A stretch of DNA of 64,000 nt, from assembly GCA_964187785.1 (NCBI GenBank), contig OZ076409.1, positions 75,456,001 to 75,520,000 of the forward strand, read 5' to 3'. Both the position numbers and the translations under genes were made by a program. Under the pieces are notes generated by a model that saw only the letters and a program-made list of their open reading frames with translations, made no database searches and was not told where the DNA came from. This document shows positions 1 through 64,000 of this stretch, piece after piece (the first letter of the stretch is position 1; every line of letters begins with the position of its first letter). The stretch comes from Amphiscolops sp. MND2022 (taxonomy: Eukaryota).

Positions 1-949
1 CCCGTTACCCCTTGGGACCGGAAATGACCGTTATGTGGGTAAAATTGCAATTTTCATACTTTTTCAAGTGTATTTAGGTGCGGAAGGAGTGGTAATAGGT
101 GCTTGGACACTATATGAGGTAAGGGAGGACGTGAGGCGAGCATTCGGAAATAACCGTTATGTTGACCCTAAAGTCCCCCTGGTACCGTAAACGACCGGAA
201 ATGGTCAAATTTTGTGTCTATTGGGTACAAATGTTTTGTATTTTGTAGATAAAAGTATCTATTAGGTGTTTCGACGGTTTGCAGTAGTGAACATAGTCAT
301 GAAACCTTGTGGGGGGTAACGGTATATAGCACCGGAAGTCAAACCGTTGGAGACAGGATAGGTTTTTTGGTTTTAAAATGTCTTTCGGCGTAATTTTTTC
401 GACTCTTGTGGACTATTTTTAAAAATTAAAGTTTTTCCATATAGTTTCAGAGACTCCGAAACCTCAACCAACATAACCGTTACCTTATGATAGCCTTTCA
501 AGTTGGCCTGGTGTCAACTTGGAAGCGCTATCCTTCTGAAATCGTTAATCAAGAGTGTTTTTGGGTAGGTATATATTGCATTAGTACCAATTAGAGCTTC
601 ATCAACAGTGTATCAACGACAAAAACTATGCCGTCATGATTCCGTTATCAGAATCATAGTGAGCAAATTGTTGAAAAAAATGGTTTTTTCCATACAAAAT
701 GTGTCCTAAATGCCAGGAAACCTATTTACCTAACAAATGGTATTAATTGGAATGTTTGTAACAGATTTATAAAAGTTCAAATTGAATATTACATTTCATT
801 ATGGAAGCTGAAACGTCATATTTTAGTTTAATTAACGTCAACGCCACACACTTTACATCAACGCACACCGTCTGTGGGCATGCCGAGGCATGCCCTTCGA
901 CGACGTATACCAAATACATACCTAACGACGCCCGTACATCCCGGGCTAG
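1..949 (+). mobile_element. Cassette type B, 5'-partial
   Basis: GATAGCC palindrome 489-532, end hairpin 876-895, ends CCCGGGCTAG. Confidence 0.75.
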
Positions 950-982
950 GTGCGGGGGGGTAACCCCAACAAAATTTTTGGA

Positions 983-1006
983 GGATTCGGGTAGGGTCCT
1001 GAATCC
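983..1006 (+). other. Representative 5' stem-loop with TAGGGT loop
   Basis: GGATTCGGG-TAGGGT-CCTGAATCC; equivalent structure with different stems in types A-F. Confidence 0.8.
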
Positions 1007-2461
1007 GATTTTGACTCTAATAGCTATCGATAGGAAATCTTGCAAAAATTTCGGGATCTCGTGATCTAACCATAGGATTTTAAAGTTGGAGCGGCCCCCA
1101 CCAGATTTTCCGAAAATTAGCGCCCCCCACCGGGTTCCATACCCCGGAAAATTTTTTTCTGGCCACACGGGCGACCGTTAGGGGGTCATTTTAGGGGTAA
1201 AATTCATATTGGGCCACATAACTTTTTTTCTGTTGATTTAAAACTTTGGGACCCTGCTAAAAGTTTCTTGACCGTGTTGCAGTGGCTCCGGAGGTCCAAA
1301 CCAAATTTTTCTATCTTGAAGCTATCTCCAAGTACCCCCCCGCTCAAACCGTTATTTTTCCGGAAACGCAGGTTTTTGACCCGGAAGGAGTCGTCTGAGC
1401 GCGGGGTCGTTAGGTGATGTTTTGGGGACGACCTTGAGACGAAGTGGGGGACATGTAGTTTGCCAACCTCAGTTTACCCCCCGGACGGGAAATGACCGTT
1501 ATATGAGCGGCAAAAATGTCCCCCTCCACGTTTTACCGCTATTTCCGGTGTGAAGGAGTGGGAGTAGCGCGTCGGGTGCCATATATCAAAAGTAGGTTTA
1601 GACAAGGATCTATCGGAAACATGTAGTTTGGGACCCCCTGGACCAACCCGTTAGCAGGAAATGGGGCTTCCGGCCCGTTTTTTTACGGTTAAAAACGGAA
1701 AATGGGCATTGAGGGGTAAATATCTCGTGAACGCGTGGAGCTACGGTGTCCTTCACCACTACAAGGTTTCATACCCATGATATGGTGCCTTCAGGGGGGC
1801 AAACAGATTTCCGCTATCTATCACCGTTACGGACTTGGCCCCCCAGCCTAACCGCTAAGTGACCGGAAATGTCACTTTTTGAGCCCAAAGGGTCGGTCCC
1901 AGCCAGGGAACGTTAGGTAACTTATTGTAGTACTCATTGAGATGAGTTGGGGGACATAGTTTCAGTCACCCCCCGTTACCCCTTGGGACCGGAAATGACC
2001 GTTATGTGAGTAAATTTGCCATTTTTGTCCTATTTGAAGGGCATTTAGATGCGGAAGGAGTGGTAATAGGTGCTTGGACACTATATGAGGTAAGGGAGGA
2101 TATGAGGCGAGCATTCGGAAATAACCGTTATGTTGACCCCAAAGTCCCCCTGGTACCGTAAACGACCGGAAATGGTCAAATTTTGTGGCCATTGGGTACA
2201 AATGTTTGGTATTTTGTAAATAAAAGTATCTATTAGGTGTTTCGACGGTTTGCAGTAGTGAACATAGTCATGAAACCTTGTGGGGGGTAACGGGGTATAT
2301 AGCACCGGAAGTCCAAACCGTTGGACACAGGATAGGTTTTTGGTTTGAAAATGTCTTTCGGCGTACTTTTGTCGACTATTATGGACTATTATTAAATATT
2401 AAAGTTTTTCCATATAGTTTCAGAGACTCCGAAACCTCAACCAACATAACCGTTACCTTAT

Positions 2462-2505
2462 GATAGCCTTTCAAGTTGGCCTGGTGTCAACTTGGAAGGG
2501 CTATC
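2462..2505. repeat. Representative B/C/D/E-type long palindrome
   Basis: GATAGCCTTTCAAGTTGGC...GTCAACTTGGAAGGGCTATC, 44 nt. Confidence 0.9.
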
Positions 2506-2921
2506 CTTCAAAACTCGTTAATCAAGTGTGTTTTTGGGTATGTTTTTATCATTTTAGAATCAATTAAAGCTCCAAGAAAAGTTTGCCAACGACAAAAACT
2601 ATGTCGTGATGATTCCGTTATTAGAATGATGGTTAACAAAATGTTGATAAAGTTAATTTTTTACCTTTCAAATGTGTCCTAAAAGCCAGAAACTCTCTTT
2701 ACCAAAAAAATGGTTTTGATTGAATTGTATATAACAGGTAATAAAAGTTCAAATTGATTATTACGTTTCATTATTCAAGCTAAAACTTCATAACATAGTT
2801 TAATTAACGTCAACGCCACACACTTTACATCAACGCCCATCGTCTGTGGGCATGCCGAGGCATGCCCTTCGACGACATATACCAAATACATACCTAACGA
2901 CGCCCGTACATCCCGGGCTAG

Positions 2922-4207
2922 GTGCCGGGATTTCTATTCGATAAAGTATGTGGCGCGTGTGGGTAGGGTCCCTGGCGCGCTCTTGGGTATGGTGTTCACC
3001 AGCTAGGAAATAGGGGTCGATTTTTCGGGATCTCCTAAACTAGCCACACGATTTGGCTGAAATTTGGCACACGTACTCCCCTCGGCATGGTGAAGATGAT
3101 TTCCTACTGACGTTTTTCCCGCAAAATTTTTTTTGTTGTCCAAAATAACGGTTTTTGGGGTAAAATTTTGAACTTTTTTTAAATTTCATCTTATATCTCG
3201 CCACGGGTTTACGCTAGCGCTTCCAAACCCTGCTAAAGAAAGCTTGCAAACTGTCTCAGGAATGTGGTGTGAAATTTTCAGCTCAATCGGACTCAAACTC
3301 GGGGAGATATAGCGTTTTTCCGGAGCGGGGGGGTTTCATTTTTCTAACGGTCCAGCTTATCTTAGCCATTTTTTCGAAAATGTACTCGCCTAAAGACCTC
3401 CCCTGGCCGGTTTTATTCCCAACAAAACCATTTGGCCCTAAATACGGAGTTTCAGCGTTCCAGCATTCCCGGGCGAAAAGTTGTGGGACTTAGAAAAGTT
3501 CAAAAATTTTCAAAAATTTTTTTTTCCGTTTTCCGCCCTCCCCCCCTAGGGGAAAAGACCCCCCAACCAGTAATTTGAGTGAATTCATGTGGAAAGGCCA
3601 TGTTTAGAGGAGAAAAATACCGTTTAGATCGTCTTTTTATCTTGGCTCAACGTTGACTTATGACGTTTTGAAGGTGATGTTTGGAGGTGTAAAGCACGTG
3701 AATAGTAAACGTTATGAGTATTTATCTGATCTGAAAGCCATTGAGATGCAATATGGTTTGCTCAAAACGTAATTCATGGCAGTTTGGCAATCAATCAACA
3801 CCCTTTGTTGTCGTTTGACATACTTTTTTGTTGTTATAATAAAAAATTTTGTGTTTTTATTCATTTTTTTCTCATCAAATAACTTGAAACAGTTGAGTAC
3901 ATTCCATCCCCCCTTCCGGGGGAGATGAGAATGTACTCGCAAAAAGCACCGAACTACGGCCCTTACCTTCCCGAGCTACGCAGTATAAGGATTACACATT
4001 GGTTCCGACATTTTCATAGAGTTATATCTTGGTAATCTGTCTGGATATGCAGAAAAATCAGCACGTGCTTTTTTATACCAAGTTGCTCACATCGACATTT
4101 ATTTTATATCAACGCCCCCATATTTATCAACGCCCCCCGTCCGTGGGCATGCCGAGGCATGCCCTTCGACGACGTATACCAAGATATGTTCGAGCGCGTT
4201 AGCCTAG
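2922..4207 (+). mobile_element. Cassette type A1 (1286 bp)
   Basis: Starts GTGCCGGGATT, GAGTACATT palindrome 3895-3938, ends GTTAGCCTAG. Confidence 0.75.
3895..3938. repeat. Representative A-type long palindrome
   Basis: GAGTACATTCCATC...GATGAGAATGTACTC, 44 nt, in all complete A units and a variant in G. Confidence 0.9.
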
Positions 4208-4210
4208 GTG
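4109..4210 (+). other. Representative conserved end module plus junction
   Basis: TCAACGCC at 4109 and 4127; GGGCATGCC-GA-GGCATGCCC 4145-4164; TTCGACGACGTAT; CTAG|GTG 4204-4210. Confidence 0.9.
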
Positions 4211-5476
4211 GCCGTGTCTTTTCGACGTGCTTTTGCATCGAGGAGTGGGTAGGGCCCCGCGACGACCTAGAAGAATTGGATGCTCACCGAAACGTGCAGA
4301 ATTCTACGAGATCTCATAGTTTGAGCCATACGATTTTGCTGAAATTTGGCATGTGGCCTGGAATTGGTGAGTAGGTAAAACGTGTAGGAGGTGATTTTTC
4401 CCAAATTCCACTCTGAGACGAGATATGGGCAAATAACGGTCCCAAAAATGGCAAAATTGCACTTTTTTCAACTTTGTCAGCCCATATCTCGTTCCCAGGT
4501 GCCCGGAGCGGGACGCGTTAAGCTGATTATAAACTCTAGGGTGTTGAGGCGGTACGGTGAACTTTGGCCCGTTCCGATCGGACTTGTAGTCTTGGAGAAA
4601 TAACGGTATTTTTGGGAAATTTTTTCTAACGGTCCAGCTTATCTTTGCCATTTTTCGAAAATGTACTCGCCTAAAGGCCTCCCCCTGGCCGAATTTACTC
4701 CCAGCAAAACCATTTGGCCCTAAATACGGAGTTTCAGCGTTCCAGCATTCCCGGGCGAAAAGTTGTGGGACTTGGAAAAATTTCAAAAATTTTCAAAATT
4801 TTTTTTTACGTTTTCCGGGCCCCCAATGAAGGGGAAACGACCCCCCAACCCTTATTTTGAGTGAATGCATGTGGAAAGGCCATGGTTAGAGGAGAAAAAT
4901 GCCGTTTAGATTGTCTTTCTATTTTAACTTGACATTGACTTATGACGTTTTGAATGTGATGTTAGGATGTGTGAGGCATGTGAAAAGTTGATGTTTTGAG
5001 TCTTTATCTCATATGAAAGCAATTGAGATGCACGCTGTCCTGCTCAAAACGTCTTCCGTTGTAGTTTTCCAGTGCACCAGAACCCTTTGGTGTCATTTGA
5101 ACATACTTTTCTTCGGTTTATTAACATTTTTAATGTATTTATTCCAATTTTTATTATCTTATAGCTCAAAACAGTTGAGTACATTTCATCTCCCTTTCGG
5201 GGGAGATGAGAATGTACTCGCTAAAGACCTAGCGCCATGACCAAAATTTGAAGCGCACGTTTTGTATCTTCTTACAGACTTGTTTTTGTATTTTTTCGGA
5301 TTTTTCTAAAAAATAATAATATACTTGAAATACATTACTTGACTTTACTACTACATTCCACCTCCAACGTCAACGCCCCCCTGCTTGCATCAACGCCCAC
5401 CGTCCGTGGGCATGCCGAGGCATGCCCTTCGACGACGTATGCCAAATGCCCAGTGCCACGCAGTCATTTTCGCTAG
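4208..5476 (+). mobile_element. Cassette type A2 (1269 bp)
   Basis: Starts GTGGCCGTGTC, ends CATTTTCGCTAG. Confidence 0.75.
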
Positions 5477-6745
5477 GTGGCCGTGTCTTTTCGACGTGCT
5501 TTTGCATCGAGGAGTGGGTAGGGCCCCGCGACGACCTAGAAGAATTGGATGCTCACCGAAACGTGCAGAATTCTACGAGATCTCATAGTTTGAGCCATAC
5601 GATTTTGCTGAAATTTGGCATGTGGCCTGGAATTGGTGAGTAGGTAAAACGTGTAGGAGGTGATTTTTCCCAAATTCCACTCTGAGACGAGATATGGGCA
5701 AATAACGGTCCCAAAAATGGCAAAATTGCACTTTTTTCAACTTTGTCAGCCCATATCTCGTTCCCAGGTGCCCGGAGCGGGACGCGTTAAGCTGATTATA
5801 AACTCTAGGGTGTTGAGGCGGTACGGTGAACTTTGGCCCGTTCCGATCGGACTTGTAGTCTTGGAGAAATAACGGTATTTTTGGGAAATTTTTTCTAACG
5901 GTCCAGCTTATCTTTGACATTTTTCGAAAATGTACTCGCCTAAAGGCCTCCCCCTGGCCGAATTTACTCCCAGCAAAACCATTTGGCCCTAAATACGGAG
6001 TTTCAGCGTTCCAGCATTCCCGGGCGAAAAGTTGTGGGACTTGGAAAAATTTCAAAAATTTTCAAAATTTTTTTTTACGTTTTCCGGGCCCCCAATGAAG
6101 GGGAAACGACCCCCCAACCCTTATTTTGAGTGAATGCATGTGGAAAGGCCATGGTTAGAGGAGAAAAATGCCGTTTAGATTGTCTTTCTATTTTAACTTG
6201 ACATTGACTTATGACGTTTTGAATGTGATGTTAGGATGTGTGAGGCATGTGAAAAGTTGATGTTTTGAGTCTTTATCTCATATGAAAGCAATTGAGATGC
6301 ACGCTGTCCTGCTCAAAACGTCTTTCGTTGTAGTTTTCCAGTGCACCAGAACCCTTTGGTGTCATTTGAACATACTTTTCTTCGGTTTATTAACATTTTT
6401 AATGTATTTATTCCAATTTTTATTATCTTATAGCTCAAAACAGTTGAGTACATTTCATCTCCCTTTCGGGGGAGATGAGAATGTACTCGCTAAAGACCTA
6501 GCGCCATGACCAAAATTTGAAGCGCACGTTTTGTATCTTCTTACAGACTTGTTTTTGTATTTTTTCGGATTTTTCTAAAAAATAATAATATACTTGAAAT
6601 ACATTACTTGACTTTACTACTACATTCCACCTCCAACGTCAACGCCCCCCTGCTTGCATCAACGCCCACCGTCCGTGGGCATGCCGAGGCATGCCCTTCG
6701 ACGACGTATGCCAAATGCCCAGTGCCACGCAGTCATTTTCGCTAG
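5477..6745 (+). mobile_element. Cassette type A2 (1269 bp)
   Basis: Near-identical to 4208-5476. Confidence 0.75.
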
Positions 6746-8013
6746 GTGGCCGTGTCTTTTCGACGTGCTTTTGCATTGAGGAGTGGGTAGGGCCCCGCGA
6801 CGACCTAGAAGAATTGGATGCTCACCGAAACGTGCAGAATTCTACGAGATCTCATAGTTTGAGCCATACGATTTTTCTGAAATTTGGCATGTGGCCTGGA
6901 ATTGGTGAGTAGGTAAAACGTGTAGGAGGTGATTTTTCCCAAATTCCACTGTGAGACGAGATATGGGCAAATAACGGTCCCAAAAATGGCAAAAATGCAC
7001 TTTTTTCAACTTTGTCAGCCCATATCTCGTTCCCAGGTGCCCGGAGCGGGACGCGTTAAGCTGATTATAAACTCTAGGGTGTTGAGGCTGTACGGGGAAG
7101 TCAGGCCCGTTCCGATCGGACTTGTAGTCTTGGAGAAATAACGGTATTTTTGGGGAACCTTTTCTAACGGTCCAGCTTATCTTTGCCATTTTTTCGAAAA
7201 TGTACTCGCCTAAAGGCCTCCCCCTGGCCGAATTTACTCCCAGCAAAACCATTTGGCCCTAAATACGGAGTTTCAGCGTTCCAGCATTCCCGGGCGAAAA
7301 GTTGTGGGACTTGGAAAATTTTCAAAAATTTTCAAAAATTTTTTTTTCGTTTTCCGGGCCCCCAATGAAGGGGAAACGACCCCCCAACCAGTATTTTGAG
7401 TGAATTCATGTGGAAAGCCCTTGTTTTGACGAGAAAAGTACCGTTTAGAACATCTTTCTATCTTGACTCAACGTTGACTTATGACGTTTTGAATGTGATG
7501 TAAGGATGTAGGAGGCATGTGATAAGTTGATGTTTTGAGTCTTTATCTCATATGAAAGCGGTTGAGATGCAAGCTGTCCTGCTCAAAACGTCTTTCGTTG
7601 TAATTTTCCAGTGCACCAATACCCTTTGGTGTCATATAAACATACTTTTCGTCGATATATTAACAATTTTAATGTATTTATTCCAATTTTTATTATCTTT
7701 TAACTCAAAACAGTTGAGTACATTTCATCTCCCTTTCGGGGGAGATGAGAATGTACTCGCTAAAGACCTAGCGCCATGACCGAAAGTTTGAAACCCACGT
7801 TTTTTATCTTCTTACAGACTTGTTTTTGTATTTTTTCGGAATTTTTTAAAAGTTAATATACTTGAAATACATTACTTGACTTTACTACTACAATCCACCT
7901 CCAACGTCAACGCCCCCTTGCTTGCATCAACGCCCACCGTCCGTGGGCATGCCGAGGCATGCCCTTCGACGACGTATGCCAAATGCCCAGTGCCACGCAG
8001 TCATTATCGCTAG
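6746..8013 (+). mobile_element. Cassette type A2 (1268 bp)
   Basis: Starts GTGGCCGTGTC, ends CATTATCGCTAG. Confidence 0.75.
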
Positions 8014-9300
8014 GTGCCGGGATTTCTATTCGTTCGAGTATGTGGCGCGTGTGGGTAGGGCCCCTGGCGCGCTCTTGTGTTTGGGGGTTTCCTACTTCTA
8101 AATCACGTTCAGATTTCCGGGATCTCGTAAACTATCCATACGATTTGGCTGAAATTTGGCACACGTACCCCCCTCGGCACGGTGAAGATGATTTCCTTCT
8201 GACGTTTTTCCCGCTAAACATTTTTTGTTGACCAAAATAACGGTTTTTGGTGGAAAATTTTTGATTTTTTTTAAATTTTATCCTATATCTCGCCACGGGT
8301 CCACGCTAGCGCTTCCAAACCTTGCTGACGAAACCTCGCAAACTGTCTCAGGAATGCTGTGTGAAATTTTCAGCTCAATCGGACTTAAACTCGGGGAGAT
8401 ATAGCGTTTTTCCGGAGCGGGGGGGTTTCATTTTTCTAACGGTCCAGCTTATCTTTGCCATTTTTTCGAAAATGCACTCGCCTAAAGGCCTCCCCTGGCC
8501 GGTTTTACTCCCAAAAAAACCATTTTGCCCTAAATACGGAGTTTCAGCGTTCTAGCATTCCGGGGCGAAAAGTTGTGGTACTTAGTAAATTTCAAAAATT
8601 TTCAAAATTTTTTTTTTCGTTATTTGGGCCCCCAAAGTGGGGGAAAAGACCCCCCAACCAGTAATTTGAGTGAATTCATGTGGAAAGGCCATGTTTAGCG
8701 GCGAAAAATGCTTTTTAGATCGTCTTTTTATTTTAACCTGTTGTTGACTTATGTTGTTTTGAAGGTGATGTTTGGATGTGTGAAGCATGTGAAAAGGTAA
8801 TTTTTTGTGTCTTTATCTCTTCTAAAAGCCATTGAGATGCAATCTGTTTTGCTCAAAACGTAATTCAATGCAATTTGGCAGTCAATGAACACAATTTGGT
8901 GTCTTTTGTTATATTTTTCTGTTGATATAATAAAAAATTTTGTGTCTTTATTAATTTTTTTTAAATAAAATAACTTGAAACAGTTGAGTACATTCCATCC
9001 CCCCTTCCGGGGGAGATGGAAATGTACTCGCTAAAAGCCGCGAACAAGAGCCCATACCTTCCTGCGCTACGCAGTATAAAGATTGCATGTTGGTTCCGAC
9101 TTTTTGGTAGTGTTATATCTTGGTAATTTGACTGAATATGGAGAAAAATCAGCAAGTGCTCTTTTATAGCAAATTGCTGACAACGACAATTTTTTTATAT
9201 CAACGCCCCCATATTTATCAACGCCCCCCGTCCGTGGGCATGCCGAGGCATGCCCTTCGACGACGTATACCAAAATATGCGTTAGCGCGGTAGCCGCTAG
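8014..9300 (+). mobile_element. Cassette type A1 variant (1287 bp)
   Basis: Starts GTGCCGGGATT, ends GGTAGCCGCTAG. Confidence 0.75.
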
Positions 9301-10585
9301 GTGCCGGGATTTCTATTCGTTCGAGTATGTGGCGCGTGTGGGTAGGGCCCCTGGCGCGCTCTTTTATTTCGGGTACACCTACTCCAAATTCACGATGTGA
9401 TTTCGACGATCTCGTAAACTAGCCACACGATTTGGCTGAAATTTGGCACACGTACCCCCCTCGGCACGGTGAAGATGATTTCCTACTGACGTTTTTCCCG
9501 CTAAACATTTTTTGTTGACCAAAATAACGGTTTTTGGGGTAAAATTTTCAACTTTTTTTAAATTTTATCTTATATCTCGCCACGGGTACACGCTAGCGCT
9601 TCCAAACCTTGCTGACGAAAGTTTGCAAACTGTCTCAGGAATGCTGTGTGAAATTTTCAGCTCAATCGGACTTAAACTCGAGGAGATATAGCGTTTTTCC
9701 GGAGCGGGGGGGTTTCATTTTTCTAACGGTCCAGCTTATCTTTGCCATTTTTTCGAAAATGCACTCGCCTAAAGGCCTCCCCTGGCCGGTTTTATTCCCA
9801 GCAAAACCATTTGGCCCTAAATACGGAGTTTCAGCGTTCCAGCATTCCCGGGCGAAAAGTTGTGGGACTTAGAAAATTTCAAAAATTTTCAAAAATTTTT
9901 TTTCCGTTATTTGGGCCCCCAAAGTGGGGGAAAAGACCCCCCAACCAGTAAAGCAAGTGAATGCATGTGCAAAGCCCTTGTTTAGAGGAGAAAAATGCCG
10001 TTTAGAACGTCTTTTTATCTTGGCTCAACGTTGACTTATGACGTTTTGAAGGTGATGTTTGGAGGTGTAAATCACGTGAATAGTAAACGTTATGAGTATT
10101 TATCTGATCTGAAAGCCATTGAGATGCAATATGGTTTGCTCAAAACGTAATTCATGGCAGTTTGGCAATCAATCAACACCCTTTGTTGTCGTTTGACATA
10201 CTTTTTTGTTGTTATAATAAAAATTTTGTGTATTTGTTCATTTTTTTCTCATCAAATAACTTGAAACAGTTGAGTACATTCCATCCCCCCTTCCGGGGGA
10301 GATGAGAATGTACTCGCAAAAAGCAGCGAATTACGGCCCTTACCTTCCCGAGCTACGCAGTATAAGGATTACATATTGGTTCCGACATTTTCATAGAGTT
10401 AAATCTTGGTAATCTGTCTGGATATGCTGAAAAATCAGCACGTGCCTTTTAATACCAAGTTGCTCACAACGACAATTATTTTATATCAACGCCCCCATAT
10501 TTATCAACGCCCCCCGTCCGTGGGCATGCCGAGGCATGCCCTTCGACGACGTATACCAAGATATACATCGAGCGCGTTAGCCTAG
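9301..10585 (+). mobile_element. Cassette type A1 (1285 bp)
   Basis: Starts GTGCCGGGATT, ends GTTAGCCTAG. Confidence 0.75.
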
Positions 10586-51678: not shown

Positions 51679-54600
51679 GTGGTCAGTGCTGTTGCGTTCA
51701 TTTTTTTCCGGCCGTGGGGGAGGGCCCCTCTGAGGCCGGTCATTTTTCAGGTAACAGCTTTCTTATACAAAAAAGCGGGAAAAAACCTCAGTGCTCAAAT
51801 CCCAACCGTCAGAATGAGCTGAAATTTGGCATGTAGCTAGTGCATTGCAAATGATTAGGATGGGTTATAACGCTATGTTTGGCAAAATTGGTTTTGTTGC
51901 ATTTTTTTTGTCATATAGGGCCAAAAATGGCCTTTTTTGCGTATTTTTTGCTTGACTAGCTAATAACTCGCGTTGGGTTGGTACTAGCGATACGGGTGTG
52001 GGGTATGGAATTGAAAGATTACCAAGTACCTTGCTGATGACGTTATTTGATTTCCGCTCACATCACCCCCCACGCCGGAAATGCCCAATTTGTCACTTCC
52101 GGTCGCAATTTTTGACTTTTTTGGATGGAGTTAAAACCCATTTCCGGTGTGAAGGAGTGGGTTGAGCGCTTCGACCCCAATATACTAAAAGTAGGTTTGG
52201 ACAAAGTCCTATTAGGAAGAAAGTAATGTAAGCCCGTACCTATCACCCCCTCACCGGAAATAGGGGTCACGCCTCCTTTTTCTGTGTTGCAAAAGTGACA
52301 TGTGCACATTTGTCCAACTCCGAAGCCCCGGAGCACCGTGGGACCCTTATACTTTCTAAACACCTATCCCACACGCTACCGGAAGTGACCGGAAGTTTCA
52401 CCGGAAATGACATCCTTGGACCGGAAATGGTCAAAAAAGGACTTTTTCAATAAAAAAAGACACTTTTGGTGCAATTTTTAGGCAAAAAGCATAATTCGTG
52501 ATACGCTTGTTGCAGTTGAAAGGGCCATTGTTCAGCAAGAATGCATACAGCATTACGTAGCACATCAAGTGGTTGATAATTTTTCGTCCATATTATCCAT
52601 AGGACCGGAAATGGCCATTTTTGAATCGGAAATTTCTTCAGCTTGATTTTTAACAAGTTTTTCTACAATATTAGTGTAGGAATTGCTCGTCGGATGCTTT
52701 AGCTCTATTTTAAAACTAGCTGACTGCTTCTTAGAAATGTATTTCAGAAATCCCAACCAATTCGAGATTACCGGAAATGGGAGTAATTGCCTCCTTCATG
52801 ACCTTTGAATGATAAATTGTTAAAATCCGCAATTTATTTTATTCCACAACTGTTGCTCAGGTTATATCTAAGCAATAACATCTGCTTGTTTTGAAGTGCT
52901 GTATTGTGGGAGATACAAATATTGCTTTTTAATAGTAATACATACGTGATATTCGCCGCAATAAAGATTTTTCAAATCAACCATTTTGAAGTCCTACTGG
53001 TGTTCCGCACACCCGAAATAATTTAAGTTTCTAGTTTCGATTTTCAGCCTTCCGCGACTATTGAGTTGAGATGATAGTTTTCACGTTCTCTGCAAAACGG
53101 GCATTTCATTGTGTATGTGACATTTATTGGGTTGTTTCACATGGTAATTCAAAACTAATTGATCATACAATTTAGAACAATTGAAAATTTTCAATTGAAC
53201 AATAAATGTTTTAATAATTTCTCTTTCGTTAAAGATACTCTTTTGTGGCCATTAGAACAGGTTGAATTGGTTGAATAAGTAACCAGTGCGATACATCGTT
53301 TAATACATACCGTTTGACATCGTTTTCTTGCGAACAAAGACAAGCATGATTTGTTGGAAGTTTTTACCATATCGCTTCAAATCGATCGTGACAAACAATG
53401 AATTTCTCGTTTTAATTGCTACTTCGAAAGCAGCCTGAAAACGCAAATCGATCTATTGAGTTATGGAGATGCAACTAAGCATTTCAAGTCTGGGTTTCAA
53501 TTTAATTCTATCACTCCGGACTATTTTTATGTCGCAAAAGTGATAAAGGGTGTTAGCAAGGTTAAAAACATCGAACAATTTTAAAAATAATGCCTTCGGA
53601 AAGGGAAGAAAAATGAGTTTTCCTGTCAAAACAATGATAACCACGTACGAAACATCAAGTATTTGTATTGTTCAATAGTCCAAAACATGAATGAAGTTTT
53701 TAAATATCCAAGAGTTTCCAATCAAGCATGCGTTTCAAATGTCTCACAGGGCAGCATCGTTTTCAAAAAACAGTGCTTTCAATGTGGTTTCATACCAGCA
53801 AAACGAACGCAGGCACAACCACATTCTCAAAATTCTTGCACAACAACCAATTTCTTTGAAAATCCTATTTGATTCCTCAAGGTATATGGTGAGAACCCTG
53901 TTGGGTTCCAAAGTTGATGTGCTGTTTCCTTGGGTTTGCGAGATAAGTTACAACGGAAATCTGAAAGCAGGTCGTCTCAATAAAATACCTGTTGCTCTTT
54001 AAACGATTGGACTTAAGTAGTCGAAATTTATTCTCAGACACTTTCGATCAGAGAATGTTTGAGTCCTAACGTTCGAATCAGGTTGGTTTCAGGTGGCTCG
54101 AAGTGCCAGCTGAACCAACCTTTCAAATAAAGAAAAACCCCACATCTCCCTTCATGCCACGCTACCCCGTATAGCGTTTCAACTTGACAGAAATTGGAAC
54201 GTTTGATTTTGGCGTCGCTTGGGATTGACACACCAGTGTTGATACTAAATTTGGCAAAGAGGAATCGCAGAAATGATTGTTTCTGTTTTTTCCTTTGATT
54301 TAGTGTGTCGAGCGTACAAAGCAGTTTGGGAAACTAACTTGCATTTCCACTGAACGAAAAGCAAAAGTAGTAACATTGAAAACTTCCGGAATAAATTTAA
54401 TCAGGTTTCCGTATTTGTGAGATCAGCTGCCACTCAGTTATCAGTTACATCTTTCAAATTTTTAAGAACAACTAATCAAACTTTGCTCGACTCTCTTGGA
54501 TAAGGCAACAATAGTTTACTAATCTGTACTCGTGGAAAAAAGTCAACTGCCGTGTCAAAAACAATCTGTATGTAACTTTTCTCTCGTGCAAAGTTATTTT

Positions 54601-54749
54601 TTACCCCCTCTGACTCAACTATAGCATGTACGTAATGAAACCAATAACACCTTCAACTGTTAATCAACGCCCACCGTCCGTAGGCATGCCGAGGCATGCC
54701 TTTCGACGACGCGCGCCGGAAACAATCTATCGGCGCCACCCGCTTCTGG
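51679..54749 (+). mobile_element. Cassette type F, single copy with unique cargo (3071 bp)
   Basis: Starts GTGGTCAG, 5' stem-loop 51708-51739, B-like block near 52141, end hairpin 54682-54701, ends CTGG. Confidence 0.7.
52790..54620. other. Non-repetitive AT-rich cargo inside cassette F, possibly decayed coding sequence
   Basis: No similarity seen to other units; lacks the ACCGGAA/poly-C/poly-G texture of the array; only short interrupted frames; boundaries approximate. Confidence 0.55.
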
Positions 54750-56151
54750 GTGGTCGGGTATTTTTTTTACTCGTATATGACGTTTGCGAGGCTTTGGGGA
54801 GGGCCCCGTGCCGAGCCTGTTCCGATAATCGCCACATGTAGAAATCTGGCACTAAAATGCGAGATCTCAAAAAGTAGCCGTTAGAAATTTCTGAAATTTT
54901 GCATGTGGCTCAGAATTAATGAGTAATGAAAAAGTGTAGGAGTGAAGGTTGCTGAAAAAATGGTCCTTGTTGCACTTTTTGCGCAATTTTTGTCTGATTG
55001 TTGCGTTTTTTATGTCATTTTCGACTTTTCAAGCGAAAAACTCATGGATGCTTCGTTCCTAGCGCATCAAGTGTGGAGCACGAAAAGTTGCAGCATCTCC
55101 AAGTGCGTATGCTGAGAAAATTTGGTTGCCGTCGGGTTACCCCCCACAGACCTAGAGGGGTACTTCCGGTTATTTTTGACCCCCTAAATTAGGTAAACTG
55201 CTAATTTTTGTAATGAAGCCGTAGATTTAGCGTGTCCGCACCCTGCTGAAGTTTTGTTAAACATTTTGAGAGAGACCCAATGACATGTGTTCAGTTCACC
55301 CCCCATCACCCCCTTGACCGGAAATGAACGTTTTTGTGCACTTTCAGACCGGATGTCTCCTTTTTCACCGGTAAGGAGGCCTTGTACGACCAACTAGCAG
55401 GATATCAAAATTGAAGTATAACCCAGGGTCAACTTAATGACCACGTGTTGTCCAGTCATGGGTTTCACTATGACCGGAAATGGGCTCAAAACCCCACTTT
55501 TAGTAGTTTTTTATCAATTTGAATAGTGTTTGGTTCACATTCAGGTGGCGTAAGTCACTTGCACCAGTGTGAGTATTAACTGCATGTTCCCTGCGTAGAC
55601 GTAACTGACACTGTCAGATACCGGAAGTAACCCCATGTGACCGGAAGTGGTCAATTTTGACCGGAAATGGTCCAAAAAGTAGCGTAAAAGCAGTTTTTCA
55701 CTACTTTTTAGGGACAATTTTTTACTTTTTTTCAATCTGAATGCCTCCTTTATACTACCAAAGCTAACATCGTTGCCTGTTTTGCTAAAGATTTGGCAAT
55801 TGATTACCTTTATCAACCCCGATAGCCTTCCAAGTTGACCTTGGGTCAATCTTGAAGGCTATCTATACTTAAAACGAAAAATCGAGATAAGTTGTTTTCT
55901 CCATTACGTTGATAATTTTTCCTTGATGTCAAAGTGTTAAGCAAAGACTTTTAAGCAAATTAATGATCTGAATCTTGTTCAGAGGTCTCACCCTGAGGAA
56001 GATTATTTGAGATTGAAGTAAACTGAGAATGAGGTTAGTATTTGTCAACATCAGAGAATCTTATCAACGCCCACCGTCTGTGGGCATGCCGAGGCATGCC
56101 CTTCGACGACGTATGCCAAATAGCGCCACAGGGCGCCCACACTTTTGCTAG
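54750..56151 (+). mobile_element. Cassette type E (1402 bp)
   Basis: Starts GTGGTCGGGTATTT; diverged relative of 40038-41455 with the same tail. Confidence 0.75.
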
Positions 56152-57440
56152 GTGCCGGGATTTCTATTCGATAAAGTATGTGGCGCGTGTGGGTAGGGTC
56201 CCTGGCGCGCTCTTGGGTATGGTGTTCACCAGCTAGGAAATAGGGGTCGATTTTTCGGGATCTCCTAAACTAGCCACACGATTTGGCTGAAATTTGGCAC
56301 ACGTACTCCCCTCGGCAAGGTGAAGATGATTCCCTACTAGCGTTTTGCTCGCAAAATTTTTTTTGTTGTCCAAAATAACGGTTTTTGGTGGAAAATTTTG
56401 AACTTTTTTTAAATTTCATCTTATATCTCACCACGGGTTTACGCTAGCGCTTCAAAACCCTGCTAAAGAAAGCTTGCAAACTGTCTCAGGAATGCGGTGT
56501 GAAATTTTCAGCTCAATCGGACTTAAACTCAGGGAGATATAGCGTTTTTCCGGAGCGGGGGGGTTTCATTTTTCTAACGGTCCAGCTTATCTTAGCCATT
56601 TTTTCGAAAATGTACTCGCCTAAAGACCTCCCCTGGCCGGTTTTATTCCCAGCAAAACCATTTGGCCCTAAATACGGAGTTTCAGCGTTCCAGCATTCCC
56701 GGGCGAAAAGTTGTGGGACTTAGAAAATTTCAAAAATTTTCAAAAAATTTTTTTTTCGGTTTTCCGCCCTCCCCCCCGAGGGGAAAAGACCCCCCAACCA
56801 GTAATTTGAGTGAATTCATGTGGAAAGGCCATGTTTAGAGGAGAAAAATCCCGTTTAAATCATCTTTTTATCTTTATTCAACGTTGACTTATGACGTTTT
56901 GAAGGTGATGTTTGGAGGTGTGAAGCACGTGAAAAGTAAACGTTATGAGTATTTATCTGATCTGAAAGCCATTGAGATGCAACCTGTTTTGCTCAAAACG
57001 TAATTCATATCCGTTTGGTAGTCAATCAACACCCTTTGTTGTCATTTGACATCTTTTTTTTGTTGATATAAGAAAAAATTTTGTGTATTTATTCATTTTT
57101 TTCTCATCAAATAACTTGAAACAGTTGAGTACATTCCATCCCCCCTTCACGGGGGAGATGAGAATGTACTCGCAAAAAGCCCCAAACTACGGCCCTTACC
57201 TTCCCGAGCTACGCAGTATAAGGATTACATATTGGTTCCGACATTTTCATAGAGTTATATCTTGGTAATCTGTCTGGATATGCAGAAAAACCAGCACGTG
57301 CTTTTTTATACCAAGTTGCTCACAACGACAATTATTTTATATCAACGCCCCCATATTTATCAACGCTCCCCGTCCGTGGGCATGCCGAGGCATGCCCTTC
57401 GACGACGTATACCAAGATATGCGTTAACGCGTTAGCCTAG
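56152..57440 (+). mobile_element. Cassette type A1 (1289 bp)
   Basis: Starts GTGCCGGGATT, ends GTTAGCCTAG. Confidence 0.75.
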
Positions 57441-59631
57441 GTGGAGGTTATTTTATAATAATTAAAGTGTTTTTTTCCGGAGTTTGTGGCTTTGGAAAAA
57501 ACAAAAGGCGAGAAATTGGGCACTCCGGGCTGAACCGTATACACTCAAAATTCGCCCAATATTTATACGATCTCGAAACCCAGCCGTACGATTTGGCTGA
57601 AAATTTGCATGCGGCTAAAAAATCAGATTCTAAGAACTATTTCCTGCTGACATTTTTTTGAAATTTTTGTGTACGTTTCCCCCCCGCCCCCTAAAGGGGT
57701 CAATTTTCCCCAATTTTGCACTTATGAGTCAAATTCTCAAAACTGGTGGATCTGAGCGTATTCCCAGCGGAGACAACTTTTAACGAGCGCTCTTCAGTAG
57801 ACCTTTTTGACTTTTTACTTTGGTGGTAGGTTCACCCCCCAAGGAGGAAATGGCTTTTTTGTGACTTCCGGTCGAGACTTTTTTCACCCAAAAAATAGAA
57901 ATAAGCCAGTTTTGAGCAGGAAGGAGTGGATTTGAAGTGTCTGTACCCTTCTAAAAATTTGTTGGGCTTGTAGCGATATATCTCATACCAAGTCTGGTTT
58001 TCACCCCCAAACCCCCCTTGGGACCAAAATTCACCCAAACTTTTTTACCTCTGTTTGTAGTTTTTTTTGCAAATTGTCGTCATTTCCATGGGTAAAGAGT
58101 TGAATTAGGGGCTCCTAATAGGGTACCAATGTTCAAGTACACTTGCAGTGCAACTGAGTGACCCTTGTTGGGCCTCTCGTGTGCTCGGCAAGGACCGGAA
58201 GTGGTGTAAACCCCCCTTTTTTGACGTTTGTTGACCTTGAGTCTCGCGCTTAGATGACGTTTATGTCGCGCAAGTCCTACAAACCAGTATTCGGATGACA
58301 CGCTAGCCAACTAGAGAGCAATACGGGAAACCATAACATACCGGAAGTAACCCTCCGTGACCGGAAGTTGTCATTTTTGGCCGGAAATGGTCCAAAACCT
58401 AGCGTAAAAGCAGTTTTTCTTTGCTTTTAAAGTCAACTTATTACAATTTTCAATCTGCGCGAGCTTGTCCTAAGGTTCGTTCTGTTGCCAGTGCACACTT
58501 TAACAAATATACATCTGTAAAATTTTCGCTATAATATCGTCGGAGAGAGAAATAACGGGTTTATGGGACTTTTTTCAAAAACGATAGTCTGTATCTGTCT
58601 TTTTTACCCAACGTTTTTCAACAGTAGAACCACAGGGGTTAGTCTCTGCCCAAATATATGCCTAACAAAACCAGTTCACCCATTGGTTGCAATTTGAGCG
58701 TTCTAGCTTTGCCAGGTCACAAGTTATGAGACTTGAAAAGTTTCCAAAATTTTTTCCGAAAATTTGTTTCTAAACTTCATGTCTCCCAAAGTTAAGAATC
58801 TTCCGCACAACTAGGATTGCAAGTGAATGCATGTGGTAGAACCTTTAAATGGAGAGAAAATATCCGTATAGAACGTCTCTTTATCGTATTTTGACGTCGA
58901 GAGATGTTGCTTTGAATGCCAGCTTGATAAGACGTCGAGTAGTAACAGTGTGTAAATGGAACATATGTCTCAACAAATACTCATCGGAATACATGCGATG
59001 AAACCCAATTACCCTCAATTTCAGTTGCCTAGTACAACAACGTCTTCCAAGGAACTTTTAATCTTTTTGAGAAGTGTTGAAGTCATCATTAAATTCAGTT
59101 AGCAAGAAACAATTGAGTACATTCTCATCTCTCCCCATCGGGTGAGATGAGAATGTTCTTGCTAAAAGCCAGGTACTACTGCCCAATTTTGTTTTATTGC
59201 GACGCATTCGGTGCTTTAGCACATAGATACTTTTATTCCGTCTCACGTTTTGTATACACTCTGATTTGTTGTTATAAATTTCTCGTCATTACTTTACATA
59301 AACTAACTACAATCGTGAACTTCAACGTCATAGCCAAATTCATTTAGACGCCCACCTTTCCGTGGGTATGCCGAGGTATGCCTTTCGAAGACGTATGTCA
59401 AAACGCAAATGCGATAAAAAAAGGTGCTGATATTCGGAAACAGTGACAAACAAATTGACTATTTGATATTTGGTAGGTTTTTATATGGAACTTACACATC
59501 ACTGACATTTCAAAACATTCCAGCTGACGGCCACATACAAACATCAACGCCCACCGTCCGTGGGCATGCCGAGGCATGCCCTTCGACGACGTATGGCAAA
59601 TACCTTCATCGACGCCTCCACATTCCCCTAG
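57441..59631 (+). mobile_element. Cassette type G, single chimeric copy with doubled end module (2191 bp)
   Basis: Starts GTGGAGG; D/E-like 5' half, A3-like 3' half; degenerate end hairpin 59364-59383 and intact one 59562-59581; ends CCCCTAG. Confidence 0.7.
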
Positions 59632-60914
59632 GTGGCCGGAAATTTTTTTTTTCAGCAAAATCTTTGCCATTGGGGGAGGGGCCCCGGATGGCCAGTAGTA
59701 CGGCATAGCTCCCTACGGAATCCAGGCGGAAAAAACGTGATTTTGGAAACTAGCCGTCAGAATTTGCTCAAATTTTGCATACGGCTTCCTATAACAATCC
59801 TAAGAACTAATCCCTACTGGTATTTTGCCCAAAAAACGCAAAAAGTTGGTCAAAATCTTAGTTTTTTGGTCAAAAAATGGCGTTTTTTCGAAAAAAATTT
59901 TTTTCAGAGACAATTACTCGTAACTGGTTCACCCAGCGCAAAAACGCCTAGCTGATTTATTGTTGGGCACTTCATGAGAAGTGCGTATACAAACTTTCGT
60001 CCAAATCGGATGAAAGTTGATTGAGAAATAACAGAAAATTTGAGGCATTTTTTTGGAAATTTTTGAAATCCCAGTCTATCTCTGCCGTTTTTTGCCCAGA
60101 TTTTTTTCCAGACACTCTCCTAAAGACCTCCCCTGGCCGGTTTACCTCCCAGCAAAACCATTTGGCCCTAAATACGGAGTTTCAGCGTTCTAGCATTCCC
60201 GGGCGAAAAGTTGTGGGACTTAGAAAAAATTTTTGGAAACGCAAAATGTGTAAAGTCAACTTCAGGCCTCCCAAAGTCAAGAAACTTCCACACAACTAGT
60301 ATTGCAAGTGAATGCATGTAGAAAGTACTCGAATAGACAAGGAAAATGGGCTATAGAACGACTCTGTAGCTTAACTTGACGTTGACTTATGACATTTTGA
60401 GTGTGAGCGTCCTATAGGATTTTAATGTCAAAAATGAGATTTTGTAAGTCATGAGTCATCAAAAACTCATCGGAATACGTTCAATCATCCCCATAGCTGT
60501 TCAATCACCGTTGCTTAGTAGAGCAACGCCATTATATGTCTTTGGACCCATTTTAAAAATTTTCCTTACCGTCTTATTCGTCCGATATCACGAAACAGTT
60601 GAGTACATTCCATCTTCCCCCTTGTGGGGGAGATGAGAATGTACTCGCCAAAGACCTGATACAATGACCCATATTGGTTTTTATTTGACTTTTCTCACAA
60701 TATTGCACACGGATAGCTGTGTTTGGTAAAAGTTTTCCTTTGCACCATGTCTCCAGAAGCAAAACCACTTCTTTAGCTTACTACTTCTACTCAAACATCA
60801 CTAACGTCAACGCCACATACTGGCATCAACGCCCACCGTCTGTGGGCATGCCGAGGCATGCCCTTCGACGACGTATGCCAAATAGCGCCGCAGGGCGCCC
60901 CCAATTTCCGCTAG
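59632..60914 (+). mobile_element. Cassette type A3 variant (1283 bp)
   Basis: Near-identical to 37367-38649. Confidence 0.75.
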
Positions 60915-62202
60915 GTGCCGGGATTTTCTATTCGTTCGAGGAAGTGGCGCGTGTGGGTAGGGCCCCTGGCGCGCTCCTGTGTTTTCGGTTTTCCTACTCC
61001 AAATTCACACCCCAGTTATCTCCGATCTCGTAAACTAGCCATACGATTTGGCTGAAATTTGGCACACGTACCCCCCTCGGCACGGTGAAGATGATTCCCT
61101 ACTGACGTTTTGCCCGCTAAACATTTTTTGTTGACCAAAATAACGGTTTTTGGTGGAAAATTTTTGATTTTTTTTAAATTTCATCTTATATCTCGCCACG
61201 GGTTTACGCTAGCGCTTCAAAACCTTGCTGACGAAAGTTTGCAAACTGTCTCAGGAAAACGGTGTGAAATTTTCAGCTCAATCGGACTCAAACTCGGGGA
61301 GATATAGCGTTTTTCCGGAGCGGGGGGGTTTCATTTTTCTAACGGTCCAGCTTATCTTTGCCATTTTTTCGAAAATGCACTCGCCTAAAGGCCTCCCCTG
61401 GCCGGTTTTATTCCCAGCAAAACCATTTGGCCCTAAATACGGAGTTTCAGCGTTCCAGCATTCCCGGGCGAAAAGTTGTGGGACTTAGAAAAGTTCAAAA
61501 ATTTTCGAAAAATTTTTTTCCGTTATTTAGGCCCCCAAAGTGGGGGAAAAGACCCCCCAACCAGTAAAGCAAGTGAATGCATGTGCAAAGCCCTTGTTTA
61601 GAGGAGAAAAATGCCGTTTAGAACGTCTTTTTATCTTGGCTCAACGTTGACTTATGACGTTTTGAAGGTGATGATTGGAGGTGTAAAGCACGTGAATAGT
61701 AAACGTTATGAGTATACATCTGATCTGAAAGCCATTGAGATGCAATATGGTTTGCTCAAAACGTAATTCATGGCAGTTTGGCAATCAATCAACACCCTTT
61801 GTTGTCGTTTGACATACTTTTTTGTTGTTATAATAAAAAATTTTGTGTATTTATTCCTTTTTTTCACATCAAATAACTTGAAACAGTTGAGTACATTCCA
61901 TCCCCCCCTTCCGGGGGAGATGAGAATGTACTCGCAAAAAGCACCGAACTACGGCCCTTACCTTCCTGAGCTACGCAGTATAAAGATTGCATATTGGTTC
62001 CGACATTTTCATAGAGTTAAATCTTGGTAATCTGTCTGGATATGCAGAAAAACCAGTACGTGCTTTTTTATACCAAGTTGCTTACAACGACAATTATTTT
62101 ATATCAACGCCCCCATATTTATCAACGCCCCCCGTCCGTGGGCATGCCGAGGCATGCCCTTCGACGACGTATACCAAAATATGTTCGAGCGCGTTAGCCT
62201 AG
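60915..62202 (+). mobile_element. Cassette type A1 (1288 bp)
   Basis: Starts GTGCCGGGATT, ends GTTAGCCTAG. Confidence 0.75.
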
Positions 62203-63490
62203 GTGCCGGGACTTCTATTCGATAAAGTATGTGGCGCGCCTTGGGTAGGGTCCCTTGCGCGCTCTTGGGTATGGTGTTCACCAGCTAGGAAACAGGGGTC
62301 GATTTTTCGGGATCTCCTAAACTAGCCACACGATTTGGCTGAAATTTGGCACACGTACCCCCCTCGGCACGGTGAAGATGATTTCCTACTGACGTTTTTC
62401 CCGCAAAATTTTTTTTGTTGTCCAAAATAACGGTTTTTGGGGTAAAATTTCGAATTTTTTTTAAATTTTATCTTATATCTCGCCACGGGTTTACGCTAGC
62501 GCTTCAAAACCCTGCTAAAGAAAGCTCGCAAACTGTCTCAGGAATGCGGTGTGAAATTTTCAGCTCAATCGGACTCAAACTCAGGGAGATATAGCGTTTT
62601 TCCGGAGCGGGGGGGTTTCATTTTTCTAACGGTCCAGCTTATCTTAGCCATTTTTTCGAAAATGTACTCGCCTAAAGACCTCCCCTGGCCGGTTTTATTC
62701 CCAGCAAAACCATTTGGCCCTAAATACGGAGTTTCAGCGTTCCAGCATTCCCGGGCGAAAAGTTGTGGGACTTAGAAAATTTCAAAAATTTTCAAAATTT
62801 TTTTTTTCCGTTTTCCGCCCTCCCCCCCTAGGGGAAAAGACCCCCCAACCAGTAATTTGAGTGATTTCATGTGGAAAGGCCATGTTTAGAGGAGAAAAAA
62901 GCCGTTTAGAACGTCTTTTTATCTTGGCTCAACGTTGACTTATGACGTTTTGAAGGTGATGTTTGGAGGTGTAAAGCACGTGAATAGTAAACGTTATGAG
63001 TATTTATCTGATCTGAAAGCCATTGAGATGCAACCTGTTTTGCTCAAAACGTAATTCATTGCAGTTTGGCAGTCAATCATCACCCTTTGTTGTCGTTTGA
63101 CATACTTTTTTGTTGTTATAATAAAAAATTTTGTGTATTAATTCATTTTTTTCTCATCAAATAACTTGAAACAGTTGAGTACATTCCATCCCCCCTTCAC
63201 GGGGGAGATGAGAATGTACTCGCAAAAAGCCCCGAACTACGGCCCTTACCTTCCTGAGCTACGCAGTATAAAGATTGCATATTGGTTCCGACATTTTGAT
63301 AGAGTTATATCTTGGTAATCTGTCTGGGTATGCAGAAAAACCAGCACGTGCTTTTTTATACCAAGTTGCTCACAACGACATTTATTTTATATCAACGCCC
63401 CCATATTTATCAACGCCCCCCGTCCGTGGGCATGCCGAGGCATGCCCTTCGACGACGTATACCAAAATATGTTCGAGCGCGTTAGCCTAG
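62203..63490 (+). mobile_element. Cassette type A1 (1288 bp)
   Basis: Starts GTGCCGGGACT, ends GTTAGCCTAG. Confidence 0.75.
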
Positions 63491-64000
63491 GTGCCGGGAT
63501 TTCCATTCGATAAGGAATTCTGCGCGTGTGGGTAGGGCCCCTGGCGCGCTCCTGTGTTTTCGGTTTTCCTACTCCTAAATAGGCCCCCTGAATTCCGGGA
63601 TCTCGTAAACTAGCCATACGATTTGGCTGAAATTTGGCACACGTACCCCCCTCGGCACGGTGAAGATGATTCCCTACTGACGTTTTGCCCGCTAAACATT
63701 TTTTGTTGACCAAAATAACGGTTTTTGGTGGAAAATTTTTGATTTTTTTTAAATTTCATCTTATATCTCGCCACGGGTTTACGCTAGCGCTTCAAAACCT
63801 TGCTGACGAAAGTTTGCAAACTGTCTCAGGAATGCGGTGTGAAATTTTCAGCTCAATCGGACATAAACTCGAGGAGATATCGCGTTTTTCCGGAGCGGGG
63901 GGGTTTCATTTTTCTAACGGTCCAGCTTATCTTTGCCATTTTTTCGAAAATGCACTCGCCTAAAGGCCTCCCCTGGCCGGTTTTACTCCCAAAAAAACCA
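63491..64000 (+). mobile_element. Cassette type A1, 3'-partial
   Basis: Starts GTGCCGGGATTTCC; truncated by the window end. Confidence 0.75.

Follow-up and report, generated by a model that had tools for sequence, protein, structure and literature searches.

Head-to-tail arrays of gene-less, probably rolling-circle elements that end in the word behind which they insert, in the genome of Amphiscolops sp. MND2022

The stretch of DNA analysed here (the window) comprises 64,000 nucleotides of contig OZ076409.1 of Amphiscolops sp. MND2022 (assembly GCA_964187785.1; C1:75,456,001-75,520,000; genome 1.07 Gb), and is a slice of an unbroken head-to-tail array with 44 complete units of 1.27-3.07 kb. 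These units are very probably gene-less partners of 14-kb Rep-helicase elements, likely copied by a rolling-circle mechanism with a nick after the tetranucleotide CTNG; since this target equals the element's own 3′ end, each insertion would recreate it. The units begin and end at fixed words, enter a defined host target without duplication or inverted repeats, share their ends with coding partners, have been shuffled one at a time and belong to an array of 6.03 Mb.

Units, junctions and target sites

The features of the window are listed below. The nine types are our own grouping; clustering at 75% gave ten, two of which were merged as A3.

1-64000, + strand: slice of a head-to-tail array of putative non-autonomous rolling-circle elements, 44 complete units of nine types
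946-63493, + strand: 45 CTRG/GTG junctions, each made of a unit's final four bases and the next unit's first three (first 946-952, last 63487-63493)
54746-54752, + strand: the CTGG/GTG junction, CTGG being the fixed 3′ end of type F
983-1006, + strand: example of the 5′ origin-like hairpin with the fixed GGG[GT]AGGGNCC box, the box lying 35-48 nt from the start
4145-4164, + strand: palindromic core of one 3′ hairpin, as an example, with a type-specific spacer of 30-45 nt and CTRG behind it
950-2921, + strand: type B, about 1.97 kb; also 11874-13843, 13844-15815 and 17197-19190; partial 1-949
2922-4207, + strand: type A1, about 1.29 kb, 19 complete units; also 8014-11873 (3), 19191-20476, 23031-33300 (8), 47819-51678 (3), 56152-57440 and 60915-63490 (2); partial 63491-64000
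4208-8013, + strand: type A2 (3 units); also 20477-23030 (2) and 42733-47818 (4)
33301-34588, + strand: type A3; also 37367-38649, 41456-42732 and 59632-60914
15816-17196, + strand: type C, with a full-length copy on C5, 98.8% identical
40038-41455, + strand: type D; also 54750-56151
34589-37366, + strand: type E (2 units); also 38650-40037
51679-54749, + strand: type F, its ends matching two coding elements and its middle being unrelated filler
57441-59631, + strand: type G, chimeric and without head box; second degenerate tail hairpin near 59345-59400

All 45 unit borders of the window read CTRG/GTG, with no spacer at any of them. As had been counted from the letters alone in an earlier, sequence-only reading of this DNA, the + strand carries 44 CTAGGTG and a single CTGGGTG (54746-54752), every one of them at a unit border; the − strand contains four matches to the junction word, all within A3 units. 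The base directly 3′ of GTG was G or C at the 45 junctions. The tail ending in GTTAGC-CTAG, which the same reading had seen followed by A2 (4208), A1 (10586), B (11874), A3 (33301), F (51679) and G (57441), is indeed followed by these heads and was found 13 times in total. We found no noteworthy open reading frame in the window (16 stop-to-stop frames of just 120-162 amino acids), TRF detected no long tandem repeat in it and Rfam gave no match in its first 20 kb. As judged by eye, A-type units also conserve a second internal palindrome, about 40 bases long (3900-3945, with equivalents in A and G units).

In a larger sample, after the correction of 13 register shifts in G runs, all 236 head contexts start with GTG and all are preceded by CTAG, CTGG or CTTG; genome-wide, CTAG stands directly before 506 of the 518 exact copies of one A1 head. 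The 5′ box is present in 44 of the 45 window heads and absent from type G. The stems around it vary by type with pairing kept (z < -1.5 against flank shuffles in 31 of 50 distinct heads), and the box-closing pair was altered on both sides in 13 of 37 sequences. At the other end, the 3′ tail motif has 4,919 exact copies in the genome and its reversed control none. The main 3′ hairpin lies 30-45 nt upstream of the end, where Helitrons of the HLE1 group have one at 10-15 nt; small second stems occur in some types and none in the tails of the coding elements typified by protein P0001 (see below). The terminal word is fixed by family: of the 134 F tails found, the 100 listed all have CTGG, and the 25 P0001-type tails all have CTAG. 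The last four bases fit CTRR in the 45 window ends, and rare CTTG and CTCG tails were found elsewhere. None of the nine types has a terminal inverted repeat, the first 60 and last 100 bases pairing no better than shuffles.

In host DNA, the left flank of the first unit was CTNG in 15 of 15 cases (CTGG 6, CTTG 5, CTAG 3, CTCG 1), for an expectation of about 1% per site by composition, and two further left flanks read CTCG and GTAG. The base before the element was G in all 17 host flanks, with no insertion between A and T or between T and T. On the right side the first host base was G in 18, A in 10, T in 4 and C in none, and the second was T in 30 of 32. Among 14 insertions with both ends available, the left and right tetranucleotides were unequal in nine, including four of the five true solos (for five multi-unit arrays of the 14 the pairing of the ends rests on position lists). 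Empty sites carried a single copy of the word in 11 other copies of a Gypsy-like repeat (10 CTTG, 1 ATTG), in two neighbouring monomers of a 170-bp repeat and in copies of the LINE-like (long interspersed nuclear element) repeat that match the left border of the 6.03-Mb array. Two other informative insertions yielded no empty site, one flank being unique and the other matched only away from the site. Because the two words differ, the right one is fixed by family and the empty sites are single-word, the left word can be assigned to the host and the right word to the element, with nothing duplicated. The element runs from GTG to CTRG and enters host DNA at CTNG, behind which DT usually stands. 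The cut falls after base 3 or 4 of the tetranucleotide, and the exact base is not assignable since the G at position 4 is common to donor and target. The host flanks were retroelements, the 170-bp repeat and unique DNA, with no insertion into telomeric repeats.

These data bear on two other explanations. Cut-and-paste DNA transposons with a 4-bp CTAG-type duplication, nesting in each other's duplications, could have produced the one solo that lies between two CTTG words and whose empty site holds a single CTTG, as well as the equal tetranucleotides of 5 of the 14 insertions. However, the tetranucleotides were unequal in the remaining nine, the right word fixed by family refutes a 4-bp duplication, and the nine types lack terminal inverted repeats; we consider this explanation almost certainly wrong. 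The sequence-only reading had likewise seen no target site duplication and had proposed that solo copies with inverted repeats plus duplications would overturn its interpretation; in fact neither inverted repeats nor duplications appeared.

The same reading had suggested that the 7-mer could equally be a recombinase core, and that a core on both sides of solo copies would point to such an enzyme. With the 7-mer as crossover core of a tyrosine recombinase, the array would be an integron- or Crypton-like stack of cassettes. A core-like word does stand on both sides of the solos, without duplication, and the mixed cassettes share one orientation. Nevertheless, that test would have misled, because the left tetranucleotide belongs to the host and the right one to the element, and they differ in 9 of 14 insertions. 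Tyrosine recombinases use a matching core of 6-8 bp in both partners, and here as many as 3 of 7 positions are unequal between the donor junction and the inferred host site (L032, L126/L125). The core is devoid of flanking inverted arms. The proteins of the coding members are of the HUH-helicase kind and matched no recombinase family, and a search of the genome with PF00589 gave four weak matches, none in the C1 array. A recombinase origin of the stack is thus very improbable. As a separate observation, G000:C3:2,083,091-2,085,292 contains three weak phage-integrase matches with a 993-base spacing, all within one 1,055-codon frame.

Two peculiarities of insertion sites deserve mention. One F copy without its first 340 bases (L031:4410-7175, C1:436,400-439,170) has a precise 3′ joint and a near-perfect 19-bp host repeat on both sides, which suggests an aberrant insertion completed by repair. 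The repeat of about 170 bp, with a target-like word, adjoins several array ends (L138:4600-9340, L140, L037, L042), and at least one array is inserted in it; arrays may start from this repeat.

Coding partners and their clade

A 13.7-kb member of the array encodes P0001 (2,377 codons stop to stop), with Helitron_like_N (PF14214) and PIF1 (PF05970) above the cut-off and a C-terminal GIY-YIG domain just below it (E 4e-4). The first two domains were also above the cut-off at L148, L150 and L153. The HUH motif and both catalytic tyrosines of P0001 align with those of Helraiser. The predicted structure of the Rep domain is a low-confidence model (pLDDT 48.8), for which Foldseek returned no match and VIA lists 7LCC (Z 5.2, root-mean-square deviation 4.7, 141 aligned) amid unrelated folds of similar Z. 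In the C1 array we found at least 17 Rep matches, all on the + strand, 14 of them in frames of at least 2,200 codons (150 of 252 candidates scored). The 14 coding copies read on their 3′ side all end in CTRG/GTG, and the eight heads read all start with GTG. At dispersed coding-type tails the head box was found in only 3 of 15 stretches.

Type F shares its ends with such elements, its first 901 and last 86 bases matching, at 96.5-98.3%, the following two.

C4:77165457-77151376, − strand: 14.08-kb coding element
C1:71601601-71615683, + strand: 14.08-kb coding element

The A types show 72-78% identity to the 5′ untranslated part of P0001-type elements, and bases 108-772 of the A3 unit at 33301-34588 are 77% identical with this part of a coding element. 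Judged from such shared ends, the window units appear as non-autonomous, gene-less partners of elements of about 14 kb coding for HUH Rep, PIF1 and GIY-YIG. Eight P0001-type proteins are 68-93% identical to each other, with dN/dS values of 0.05-0.18 in 12 of 28 pairs and saturation in the rest. For a second gene, about 340 codons long, an RPA-like OB-fold product is predicted (pLDDT 73.5; Foldseek E 4e-5, TM-score about 0.2). A third frame, in one copy only, resembles SGNH hydrolases and is a lead only. Some variation in the coding members was also seen: one element (L047:5750-7450) has two internal minisatellites with units of about 60-70 bp between the Rep-helicase and accessory genes, an OTU-like N-terminal domain occurs in some clade members (homologs P0025 and P0083; L150 by eye only) and the GIY-YIG of L150 appears degenerate.

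In the trees of the Rep domain, the array proteins and their homologs fall on one side of a long branch (support 98/97 in IQ-TREE and 98 in FastTree, 144 rows), and in the helicase tree (FastTree) the clade has a support of 100. All these trees are midpoint-rooted and contain no curated references, proteins from the same genome standing in for the two main groups of Helitron-like elements, HLE1 and HLE2. The HLE1 stand-in matches Helraiser at E 9e-193; Helraiser matches P0001 in the helicase only (E 2e-6). As for the HLE2 stand-ins, DUF6570 was present in the six own-genome proteins scanned, in none of six clade proteins from the loci and in none of 19 homologs. The clade proteins gave no match to an AP (apurinic/apyrimidinic) endonuclease. 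By these comparisons the clade would belong to the broad Rep-helicase (Helitron-like) group, separate from HLE1-like and HLE2-like Helitrons. The genome also carries intact Helitrons of both these kinds, so three Rep-helicase lineages coexist in it. The Helitron-like interpretation that the sequence-only reading had given to the CTRG end holds in view of the coding partners, and the GTG start and self-targeting, which it had found unlike canonical Helitrons, accord with a clade of its own whose target rule resembles that of IS91.

Relatives were found outside this genome. A profile search yielded 194 clusters at E <=1e-30 and 542 at E <=1e-10; 14 of the 19 long homologs scanned had a GIY-YIG match, and one of ten clusters looked up was named as hagfish. 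There were 34 pattern matches in viral contigs, with no relative among them. One distant member (24% identity to P0017) has two copies on two metagenome contigs, with 11.9 kb in common and different flanks. Both are solos that lie behind a host CTGG or CTCG, start with TTAG, carry the same box hairpin and end in CTGG before a T; in a third contig the box hairpin lies 1.3 kb upstream of its gene. Since the two distant copies keep the CTNG-type host word, the box hairpin and the CTGG end, the end rule extends beyond this genome, while the GTG start is peculiar to it.

This is apparently an undescribed group of rolling-circle elements. We found no description of the clade or of such mixed arrays in the published literature, a search that did not cover most subscription papers, Repbase, Dfam or supplements. 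The set of elements left unclassified by HELIANO, or the Paramecium clade discussed below, may overlap with it. The fuller proposition, towards which we are slightly less inclined than towards its contrary, would be that of a widespread, undescribed fourth lineage (Rep, PIF1 and GIY-YIG with an RPA-like accessory gene) that follows the IS91 end rule and lands preferentially at the origins of resident elements, dozens of families together with their intact coding parents thereby building and sharing a self-perpetuating safe-harbour locus of megabase size.

Array extent and growth

The array to which the window belongs has the following limits.

G000:C1:70,454,838-76,487,313, single strand: whole array, 6.03 Mb, many families

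It was sampled rather than read throughout: six of six 4-kb samples inside the region had at least 97% unit cover and junctions on a single strand only, and none of the 14 samples outside had any cover. Smaller arrays and solos are found on many chromosomes. An assembly artefact was rejected, given that the units are diverged, lie on many chromosomes and include intact, diverged genes. A general centromere role is unsupported; arrays this large occur on C1 only, among the matches listed. At the ends of the array (L197:839 and L202:3314) the left flank is a LINE-like reverse transcriptase stretch and the right flank is not its continuation. On the same contig (C1:23.98 Mb, L039:4801-9217) two array segments face each other across a 200-N gap, by inversion or by an assembly effect. 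Solo copies (L032, L033, L034, L036) are 76-97% identical to their nearest sampled relative versus 95-99.8% for array-end units, a divergence that may reflect age or sampling.

How such an array could be built is suggested by the biochemistry of HUH enzymes (IS91, Helraiser). The protein would bind the 5′ hairpin and nick at CTNG^GTG, the PIF1 helicase would displace one strand and a second cut would follow the terminal CTRG. The strand, or a circle, would then join another CTNG^DT site, recreating the target at both ends. Resident junctions could be favoured if what the enzyme normally nicks is a junction with a 5′ hairpin downstream of it; this is the step of which we are least sure, and we hold it with slightly less than even confidence. 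Local re-insertion, or loss of dispersed copies, could yield the same junction bias. That GIY-YIG nicks the second target strand is a guess.

The order of the units fits the entry of single units at junctions. Among 17 pairs of non-adjacent units with at least 97% identity, none had a neighbour at least 97% identical in common, and two A3 copies that are 99.8% identical have different types on both sides; therefore, units move singly. The terminal spacer is linked to its own unit (2.19 of 2.49 bits) more than to the next head (1.13, 0.78 in shuffles). As the spacer travels with its own unit, exchange takes place at the junction and not in the shared hairpin, and circle recombination at the shared tail hairpin was rejected. 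The free head-tail pairing claimed by the sequence-only reading is overstated: pairing is broad, with 22 ordered type pairs in the 43 junctions between complete units, and it is not free, as 20 of the 43 join neighbours of the same type versus 10.1 in shuffles (none of 20,000 shuffles was as high). No consistent direction of growth emerged, the 5′-most unit being closer to its nearest relative in five of nine arrays and the 3′-most in four.

The same rolling-circle elements could alternatively have built the arrays chiefly through the insertion of concatemers, the bypass of ends and unequal exchange, without any real junction preference and with loss of the dispersed copies. The same-type neighbours, several of them 98-99.8% identical, would be expected in this case, as would the long same-type runs elsewhere in the genome and the chimeric units, and tandem Helitron copies are described from bat, fly, rice and maize in the accessible part of PMC5148889. 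Besides, 15 of 25 P0001-type tails abut host DNA. Nonetheless, 23 of the 43 junctions join neighbours of different type base-exactly, near-identical units share no neighbours, families with tails alike only in the tetranucleotide join the same arrays, and there are two-unit arrays of different types within a single host site (L135/L136). We judge it unlikely that arrays grew mainly in this way.

Several observations weigh against the explanation that we prefer. Same-type neighbours are twice as frequent as expected at random, and therefore concatemers or local duplication also contribute. By rough extrapolation from 52 kb of non-array DNA the genome would hold about 190,000 CTRGGTG and 4 million CTDG-DT sites; the target being so common in host DNA, its short sequence cannot explain the clustering, in which a head follows 94 of the 100 listed F tails, although only 10 of 25 P0001-type tails. 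The GTAG left flank is an exception to CTNG, and some left flanks were collected with a pattern favouring CTNG, although the unconditioned checks (the 518 head copies, the 236 head contexts and the two extra flanks) agree with it, GTAG excepted. P0001-type coding elements have no large tail palindrome and their tail folding is weak, the Rep-to-Helraiser sequence score is also weak (E 0.11) and most window types are without a coding parent matched at both ends. Finally, the 6-Mb array spans at least one assembly gap, and its two flanks belong to separate host sites, a mismatch that suggests either exchange or deletion between arrays or an effect of scaffolding.

An end that equals the target, and so rebuilds it each time, would provide a direct route from transposition to satellite-scale DNA, and in this genome the property goes together with a 6-Mb stack in which many families lie on one strand. 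It also connects the Helitron-like elements of eukaryotes with the target rule of IS91 and, because ends, target and intact enzymes are in hand, it makes Helitron target choice testable. The clade would escape tools that look for TC...CTRR or for inverted repeats. Work on gene delivery would have an interest in a sequence-specific and scar-free rolling-circle integrase that moves 14 kb, if it is active.

Comparison with known systems

What follows is taken from the accessible parts of the cited articles. HLE1 elements start with TC, end in CTRR and insert in AT, HLE2 elements have inverted repeats and insert in TT, and some elements in 19 genomes were left unclassified (PMC11417382). The window clade is like HLE1 (Helraiser, PDB 7LCC; PMC11417382, PMC13286980) in the HUH-Y2 Rep-PIF1 fusion, the CTRR-like 3′ end, the lack of duplication and the many non-autonomous partners sharing its ends. 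It differs in starting with GTG and not TC, in the CTNG-DT target instead of A/T, in the boxed 5′ hairpin and the C-terminal GIY-YIG, and in forming a separate clade. With HLE2 (Helitron2/Helentron; PMC11417382, PMC5148889) it has in common the Rep-helicase, hairpins near both ends and non-autonomous partners, and one HLE2 family is reported with a captured GIY-YIG (same sources). In contrast to HLE2, as described there, the window clade has no asymmetric inverted repeats, no T/T target, and no DUF6570 or AP endonuclease match, and again groups separately.

A parallel to the end rule comes from bacteria. The Rep of the window clade, in a eukaryote genome, has a fused PIF1 helicase, whereas the TnpA of IS91 is not known to have a fused helicase. 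IS91 takes CTTG or CTCG as target beside its origin, has CTCG as terminal cleavage site and makes no duplication (PMC13181058). A target tetranucleotide at the origin end resembling the terminal one, subterminal palindromes, absence of duplication and a fixed orientation are thus found in both. However, IS91 is bacterial and small, the likeness is one of end rule by description, and the accessible text of PMC13181058 does not mention megabase mixed arrays.

In Paramecium a third Helitron clade has been described, distinct from HLE1 and HLE2, that has CCAA as its end and apparently inserts in C4A2 repeats (PMC13085455). As in the window clade, its end resembles its target, its orientation is strict and copies accumulate locally. 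Compared by description only, it differs in that the target is the telomeric repeat and not an element junction, and GIY is not mentioned in the accessible text. Replitrons (PMC10288648) are also eukaryotic HUH elements and have short terminal direct repeats, maybe partly target sequence; by that account they have no helicase, and here the apparent repeat is a host word plus an element word. Tandem Helitrons are already known (PMC5148889, PMC11934779, PMC13286980, 10.64898/2026.09.17.752431), and large local amplification has been described for Helitron-derived satellite blocks, in Hydractinia (PMC11934779) and as plant centromeric tandem Helitrons (cited in PMC5148889). Those blocks, as far as these texts describe them, consist of single families or truncated copies, whereas the present array interleaves full-length members of many families with intact coding copies, at junctions exact to the base.

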